From Alphaproteobacteria bacterium (GTDB lineage Bacteria; Pseudomonadota; Alphaproteobacteria; VGEJ01): DNA of 64,000 nucleotides. Below are positions 1,950 to 3,598 of the stretch, piece after piece. The translations under genes were made by a program, and so were the position numbers. The number at the start of each line of letters is the position of its first letter. Within the stretch, counting starts at the first letter, position 1. Under the pieces are notes generated by a model. The model saw only the letters and a program-made list of their open reading frames with translations, did not search any database and was not told the DNA's origin. Location: the NCBI GenBank assembly GCA_965219135.1, contig CBDCMV010000002.1, positions 737,092-801,091 on the forward strand. Reading direction: 5' to 3'.

Positions 1950-3598
<1,649 letters not shown>

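Follow-up and report, generated by a model that had tools for sequence, protein, structure and literature searches.

In the Serratia prolyl aminopeptidase (PAP), an enzyme of MEROPS family S33, Ser113, Asp268 and His296 form the catalytic triad, the nucleophile motif is GXSXG and a six-helix cap is present (PMC9147577). The locus described here belongs to an uncultured alphaproteobacterium and lies in a stretch of 64,000 nt that was analysed as a whole (the window). It holds a prolyl aminopeptidase gene (pip) whose reading frame is broken at two points (Table 1). Joining the frames and replacing the internal stop by X gives a conceptually repaired product. Its score against NCBIfam TIGR01249 is 390.9 bits, where the prolyl aminopeptidase equivalog cutoff is 259.75 bits, and the match covers profile positions 14–305 of 307. 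The alignment of the repaired product with each of two proteins of known crystal structure, Xanthomonas campestris PIP (1azw; E 1e-111) and Serratia marcescens PAP (1qtr; E 4e-110), runs over the full length. In its ancestral state the gene was an ordinary member of MEROPS S33.001 and TIGR01249.

Counting along the 1qtr alignment places Ser111 of the window gene (GGSWG) on Ser113, the in-frame TAG on Tyr122 and the switch of frame on a G-R-Y-D sequence that contains Asp268. With the S33.001 enzymes 1azw and 1qtr, the window gene shares the GGSWG elbow, cap-domain residues in IE.HYF and recognisable codons for the catalytic Asp and His. By contrast with these enzymes, it has TAG in place of Tyr122, and the Arg-Tyr that precedes Asp268 (Serratia numbering in both cases) has been deleted together with a frameshift. 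Family homology is thus combined with disabling lesions at conserved positions, and we consider this locus, with high confidence, to be a genuine and recently formed pip pseudogene. Such pseudogenes are familiar, and the present one adds an instance, not a mechanism.

Intact relatives were recovered by protein search at 81–91% identity, with lengths of 315–324 aa (P0001–P0006). Four orthologues were aligned: P0001, P0002 and P0004 (91%, 89% and 88% identity; loci L081, L083 and L085) and one from a metagenome-assembled genome (MAG; L001, 83%). These orthologues from related uncultured alphaproteobacteria have TAC at codon 120, retain the 8 nt that the window lacks and encode products of 315–320 aa. 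Their loci also share the neighbourhood of the window gene, with upp, an RraA-like gene, pip, genes for a sugar-binding protein and a permease, hydantoinase A/B genes and amidase genes.

Two lesions in the pip reading frame

The initial annotation had placed an amber codon in pip where a Tyr codon (TAY) is expected and had noted a frameshift downstream, counting two independent hits. Both hits are borne out. On the minus strand, the plus-strand cta at 2530–2532 becomes a TAG in the frame set by the ATG at 2889. It differs from the ancestral codon by a C-to-G change at the third position, the nucleotide alignment having GCC-TAC-GC(G/C) in four of four orthologues and GCT-TAG-GCG in the window. 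An alignment with PIP homologues, which the same annotation had proposed as a check, has Tyr at this column in all 120 sequences (61–91% identity), and 1azw and 1qtr have Tyr there as well. Because TAC has become TAG at codon 120, translation from the native ATG stops after 119 residues, where a family member has an uninterrupted reading frame of ~315–320 codons. The 119-aa product keeps the nucleophile elbow with the catalytic Ser111 and is devoid of the cap domain, the Asp and the His. As this is a single codon inside a strongly conserved reading frame, chance is not the relevant null; the question is whether the change is an error or real.

The second lesion, known until now as a downstream frameshift, is exactly an 8-nt deletion. 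The missing nucleotides are GCCGCTAC of GGC-CGC-TAC-GAC (GCCGATAC in L083); orthologues read CAA-GGC-CGC-TAC-GAC, with the 8 nt present in four of four, and the window reads CAG-G........GAC. Through the deletion the gene has lost Arg265 and Tyr266 of the invariant G-R-Y-D, both of which adjoin the catalytic Asp; the G, R and Y are each found in 120 of the 120 homologues. The codons for Asp267 (2097–2099) and His295 (2013–2015) are out of frame with the pip start, and the catalytic Asp and His no longer share a frame with the Ser. The 49 C-terminal residues typical of the family (DSVTPVRTAW...AGHAQTEPG...TDGFRV and stop) are encoded in the other frame, down to the TAG at 1950–1952. Even if the upstream TAG were read through, the Asp and His would be lost and translation would continue as Arg/Pro/Gly-rich nonsense into the next gene; the deletion thus leaves pip dead even if the TAG is decoded. 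As it stands, the locus is unable to yield an active enzyme. An intact second copy of pip was not found within the 64-kb window.

Table 1. Features of the pip locus and disrupted or mobile genes in the window and the sister strain (window coordinates unless stated otherwise)
Feature	Position	Strand	Remarks
pip pseudogene (prolyl aminopeptidase, MEROPS S33 / TIGR01249)	1950..2889	−	ATG 2889-2887; original TAG stop 1952-1950; two disabling lesions
Lesion 1, in-frame TAG at codon 120	2530..2532	−	Ancestral TAC (Tyr); Tyr122 of Serratia PAP; 9 residues past the nucleophile Ser
Lesion 2, 8-nt deletion junction (GCCGCTAC)	2098..2100	−	Placement ambiguous by 1 nt (one G)
Nucleophile Ser111 codon (GGSWG, GXSXG motif)	2557..2559	−	Retained in the 119-aa truncated product; motif as in PMC9147577
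Residual N-terminal ORF, 119 aa + stop	2530..2889	−	Sole part that the native start can still yield; called as its own gene in public assemblies
Spurious 556-aa fusion ORF, GTG at 2508	838..2508	−	pip cap-domain region, out-of-frame pip tail, intergenic sequence and binding-protein gene
Periplasmic sugar-binding protein, 333 aa	838..1839	−	Own ATG behind GGGAGGA; conserved TAG stop; Peripla_BP_4 1-257/258
RraA-like gene upstream of pip	2894..3598	−	234 aa by public gene call; TGA 4 nt ahead of the pip ATG
URC1-like gene (GTP_CH_N + GTP_cyclohydro2), split	5626-6938, indel 6451	−	Window-only 1-nt deletion GGG->GG; 402 aa in L086
Aldo-keto reductase/aromatic amino-acid lyase chimera, 455 aa	12322-13689, junction 13243/13244	+	Window-private 4,348-bp deletion
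SDR remnant, 88 aa	13643-13909	+	adh_short_C2 in the L088 annotation; both strains
SBP_bac_1 solute-binding gene, split	15112-16340, deletion 15665	+	Window-private 4-nt deletion (CTCA); intact, 410 aa, in sister L088
DUF488 gene, in-frame TAG 19119-19121	18873-19310	+	Pfam profile 2-64 before and 86-121 after the TAG, same frame
IS transposase DUF772/DDE_Tnp_1, 347 aa	19926-20969	+	
IS transposase IS1182-type, DDE_Tnp_1_6, 452 aa	30261-31619	−	Identical copies on several contigs
ABC-permease remnant, 91 aa	38893-39168	+	BPD_transp_1 102-179/184; directly upstream of MalK-like ATPase gene
Sister-private deletion, ~2.35 kb	~44020-46370; L089 15195-17897		Between short GC-rich direct repeats CGCCGC(C)GGCG
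DUF6691 gene, seemingly truncated, 93 aa	48110-48391	+	Profile 4-64/142; faces ppdK remnant; both strains
ppdK remnant, ~300 aa	48710-49681	−	PPDK_N profile 76-202/328 only; downstream of glyQ-glyS; both strains
TPR-repeat gene, 1-nt deletion CC->C at 57313 near the 3′ end	~57223-57801	−	Window-only; 192 aa in L089

Artefact, recoding and residual function

If one or both lesions were errors of long-read metagenome assembly at roughly 10x coverage, the true gene would be intact. Names such as ctg835390_10x_l on relatives and on the sister contig hint at modest coverage, and two 1-nt differences seen only in the window fall in short homopolymers (GGG to GG at 6451, CC to C at 57313) and could be errors of this sort. 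Neither pip lesion, however, is a change of homopolymer length, one being a C-to-G substitution and the other an 8-nt deletion outside any repeat, and two such unlike lesions in one gene are unlikely to be independent errors reproduced twice. Both are found, identical, in a sister strain from a different sample (ENA ERZ25067264, a 569,261-bp contig with loci L086, L088 and L089). Locus L086 is 99.93% identical to positions 1–12888 of the window, with eight SNPs and one 1-nt indel between them, and further along the sister differs from the window by additional SNPs and kilobase deletions; over the ~50 kb compared, the two strains are separated by 53 SNPs and 7 indel events and are ~0.11% divergent. 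Because SNPs and an indel separate it from the window, L086 is an independent assembly, and because both lesions recur in an independent assembly, assembly error is very unlikely; this agreement takes the place of the read-level confirmation proposed in the initial annotation. The exact 119-aa pip product is on record on two contigs (1,033,643 bp and 569,261 bp), and the lesions appear to be real rather than sequencing artefacts.

Amber recoding or suppression, through a suppressor tRNA or pyrrolysine, would instead have the TAG decoded. The initial annotation had preferred a nonsense mutation on the grounds that neighbouring genes use TAG as a true terminator, and this reasoning stands. The neighbouring stops at 838, 3714 and 4377 are all TAG, and the genes that end there are full-length against Pfam (Peripla_BP_4 1–257/258, UPRTase 2–206/206 and DUF1688 2–420/420, respectively). 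TAG ends 16 of the 43 Pfam-supported genes in the window (37%), compared with 24 for TGA and 3 for TAA; it is neither rare nor avoided, and genes do not extend through it. Stop positions are kept in orthologues at related loci while the three codons interchange. The upp stop is TAG in the window, L001 and L081 and TGA in L085; the amidase stop is TAG in the window and TAA in L081; the RraA-like gene ends in TGA in the window and TAG in L085; and the AMP nucleosidase gene ends in TGA in the window and TAG in L001 and L085. The terminal TAG of pip is likewise present in the intact orthologues.

Recoding draws its support from a second conserved gene in the 64 kb that carries an in-frame TAG, the DUF488 gene. 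The initial annotation had held that an amber suppressor in the genome, together with many conserved genes with in-frame TAG, would overturn the nonsense reading; a second such TAG does exist, but it replaces a Trp (TGG to TAG) and stands beside frameshifts and deletions in other genes. This Trp is present in 120 of 120 homologues, as established by a homologue search used after a PDB sequence search with the DUF488 protein gave no match, and the TAG is common to the window and the sister assembly, with an 82-aa truncated call in L088. No consistent decoded residue emerges, with Tyr in pip and Trp in DUF488. Two TAGs at different invariant residues, each a single mutation from the ancestral codon, are to be expected of random nonsense mutation in a high-GC genome and not of a single decoding rule, and their occurrence among frameshifts and deletions in other genes points to general pseudogenisation. 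The only tRNA found in the window and in L086–L089 is tRNA-Pro(CGG), lesions other than TAG are frequent in the window, and pip is dead regardless through its 8-nt deletion. Thus, the probability of recoding is practically nil; TAG appears to be a genuine terminator in this organism, and any suggestion of amber recoding is removed. A programmed or reversible switch, in which ribosomal frameshifting bypasses the lesion or the indel is phase-variable, has nothing in its favour beyond the existence of a frameshift, and we give it a negligible chance. The indel is 8 nt long and lies outside a repeat tract, its junction is identical in both strains and a nonsense codon is also present upstream; no +1 or −1 slip restores the complete conserved protein, as two residues invariant in all 120 homologues have been deleted and no change of frame brings them back.

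A functional product of a new kind, either the 119-aa fragment or a 556-aa protein started at GTG 2508, is exceedingly improbable. The longer frame is indeed open and appears in public annotation as a single gene. It owes its existence to the deletion, after which the frame stays open past the old pip stop and a 110-nt spacer into the binding-protein frame. The binding-protein gene, however, starts at an ATG of its own, behind a strong GGGAGGA Shine–Dalgarno sequence, and orthologous binding proteins have 333–334 aa; about 80 residues of the fusion are the out-of-frame pip tail and translated intergenic sequence, an Arg/Pro/Gly-rich nonsense stretch; and the fusion would place the binding-protein signal peptide internally. 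Accidental long ORFs are common at 66.7% GC. The 119-aa fragment, for its part, lacks two-thirds of the α/β-hydrolase fold. The ORF at 838–2508 is therefore a gene-calling artefact made by the deletion. In public gene calls the locus appears as two genes, a 'hydrolase' of 119 aa and a spurious 'binding protein' of 556 aa in which pip remnants are fused to the real 333-aa sugar-binding protein; it should be labelled as one pip pseudogene.

The RraA-like TGA lies only 4 nt from the pip ATG, and the two genes are therefore probably co-transcribed. If the downstream ABC-transporter genes belong to the same transcript, the lesions may have a polar effect on them, with ~690 nt of pip left untranslated. 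A scan of positions 700–4500 for promoters and terminators gave nothing better than shuffled sequences.

A separate scan for stops with coding signal on either side picked out the DUF488 TAG and missed the pip TAG, and is accordingly not exhaustive; its other hits were mostly same-frame neighbouring genes or antisense artefacts. The TAG at 21925–21927, a candidate for a third in-frame amber codon, was rejected, as the first ORF ends naturally and Cupin_2 has its own ATG 6 nt on. This stretch (21508–22374, minus strand) holds a 149-aa, highly acidic ORF without a Pfam match, whose TAG lies 6 nt ahead of the same-frame Cupin_2 gene, and the two are taken to be separate genes. The codon-usage gene model miscalled 21544–22341 on the plus strand, where public calls have minus-strand genes.

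Age of the inactivation

Nei–Gojobori dN/dS values for pip are 0.10–0.18 in pairs that include the window and 0.146–0.254 in pairs of intact orthologues. Parsimony, with L081 as sister and three outgroups, assigns 23 synonymous and 9 non-synonymous changes, including the nonsense change, to the window branch, counts that could be affected by errors in L081, which comes from a '2x' contig. The elevated dN/dS of relaxed constraint, expected only in older pseudogenes, is not seen in pip. As the values lie within the range of intact orthologues, we infer that the inactivation is recent; dN/dS alone would also fit a functional gene, and it is the two lesions, rather than the pattern of substitutions, that make the case for loss of function. 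Purifying selection would have acted on the gene through almost the whole period since its split from the 91% relative.

Both lesions are older than the divergence of the two strains. The JGI metagenome collection, scanned for the TAG/TAC context with the flanks of this lineage and for the deletion junction, gave 0 hits in each case and no intermediate states by which to order the lesions. The TAC of the invariant Tyr120 became TAG through one C-to-G change. Independently, and before or after it, the Arg-Tyr codons of G-R-Y-D were lost to an 8-nt deletion that also shifted the frame, and both lesions are fixed in two strains, near-identical and from different samples. Normal purifying selection may have lasted until shortly before the strains diverged, with neutral decay under weak selection thereafter. 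On this account, the loss of prolyl aminopeptidase activity from this locus would be a recent event in the lineage, and it may be part of a wider, ongoing erosion in which IS elements, nonsense codons, frameshifts and strain-specific deletions wear down the genome.

Disrupted genes elsewhere in the window

By Pfam annotation and comparison with the sister strain, at least seven genes in the 64 kb prove to be disrupted or truncated, and two IS transposases are present; the comparison covered ~50 kb, outside which lie the permease remnant at 38893–39168 and the IS1182-type transposase at 30261–31619. Lesions common to both strains, and older than the private ones, are those of pip, the DUF488 nonsense codon, the SDR remnant and the ppdK remnant; the strains also have IS elements in common. 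The ppdK remnant and the seemingly truncated DUF6691 gene, which are convergent, also occur in the sister strain and may stem from an older deletion between the two.

Five gene-disrupting events are private to one strain, four in the window (two of 1 nt, one of 4 nt and one of 4,348 bp) and one in the sister (~2.35 kb). The 4,348-bp deletion (L088 1090–5437) took Amidohydro_2 and Amidohydro_1 genes, an IS1595 transposase and a 130-aa ORF, and its junction has 1 nt of microhomology. The resulting chimera joins an aldo-keto reductase part (profile 2–263/291) to the interior of a lyase (278–429/466). The sister deletion removed the 3′ end of a GH15 gene, a whole GT20 (otsA-like) gene and most of a glucokinase gene, all intact in the window, and left a spurious 900-aa GH15–Amidohydro_2 fusion ORF; a split Amidohydro_2 gene is also private to the sister strain. 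The 1-nt deletion at 6451 either is a true frameshift or reflects a consensus error in a homopolymer, and that at 57313, also in a short homopolymer, could be a consensus error. The URC1-like gene at 6451, together with a DUF1688 (URC4-like) gene at 4377–5600 and upp at 3714–4346, presumably resembles a bacterial URC-type pyrimidine-degradation cluster. The strains are further distinguished by in-frame 3-nt indels in GC-rich repeats at 48262–48264 and 58453.

Contig L087, which carries a copy of the transposase at 30261–31619, has ~8 transposase genes, from four families or more, within 21 kb, and the lineage is thus IS-rich. Decay around pip is seen in the related loci as well. In L081 (8240–9179), upp is split into three ORFs, possibly by errors in this '2x' contig. 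In L082–L084 (11003–12782), the binding protein is truncated to 193 aa and the permease is in fragments; an IS1595 element is inserted in the L084 permease.

Pseudogenes are known to accumulate in IS-rich genomes under relaxed selection, as in Mycobacterium leprae, Shigella, Sodalis glossinidius and Burkholderia mallei. Unlike for those organisms, the view here extends to ~64 kb of a genome of 66.7% GC, and we propose only tentatively, as a reading somewhat short of an even chance, that this uncultured high-GC alphaproteobacterial lineage is undergoing genome erosion that is still at an early and active stage. The density of the disruptions and their turnover at strain level are the sole mildly unusual aspect, and may reflect such erosion. 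If true genome-wide, the lineage would be a natural system in which to watch pseudogenisation at strain resolution and might have undergone a recent shift of lifestyle or a population bottleneck; the combination of shared and strain-private disruptions with IS elements is a modest lead for research on genome reduction. Like the IS-rich decaying genomes, the window mixes nonsense codons, frameshifting and gene-fusing kilobase deletions, gene remnants and IS transposases, and, as in those genomes, near-identical strains, here the window and its sister, differ by private gene losses.
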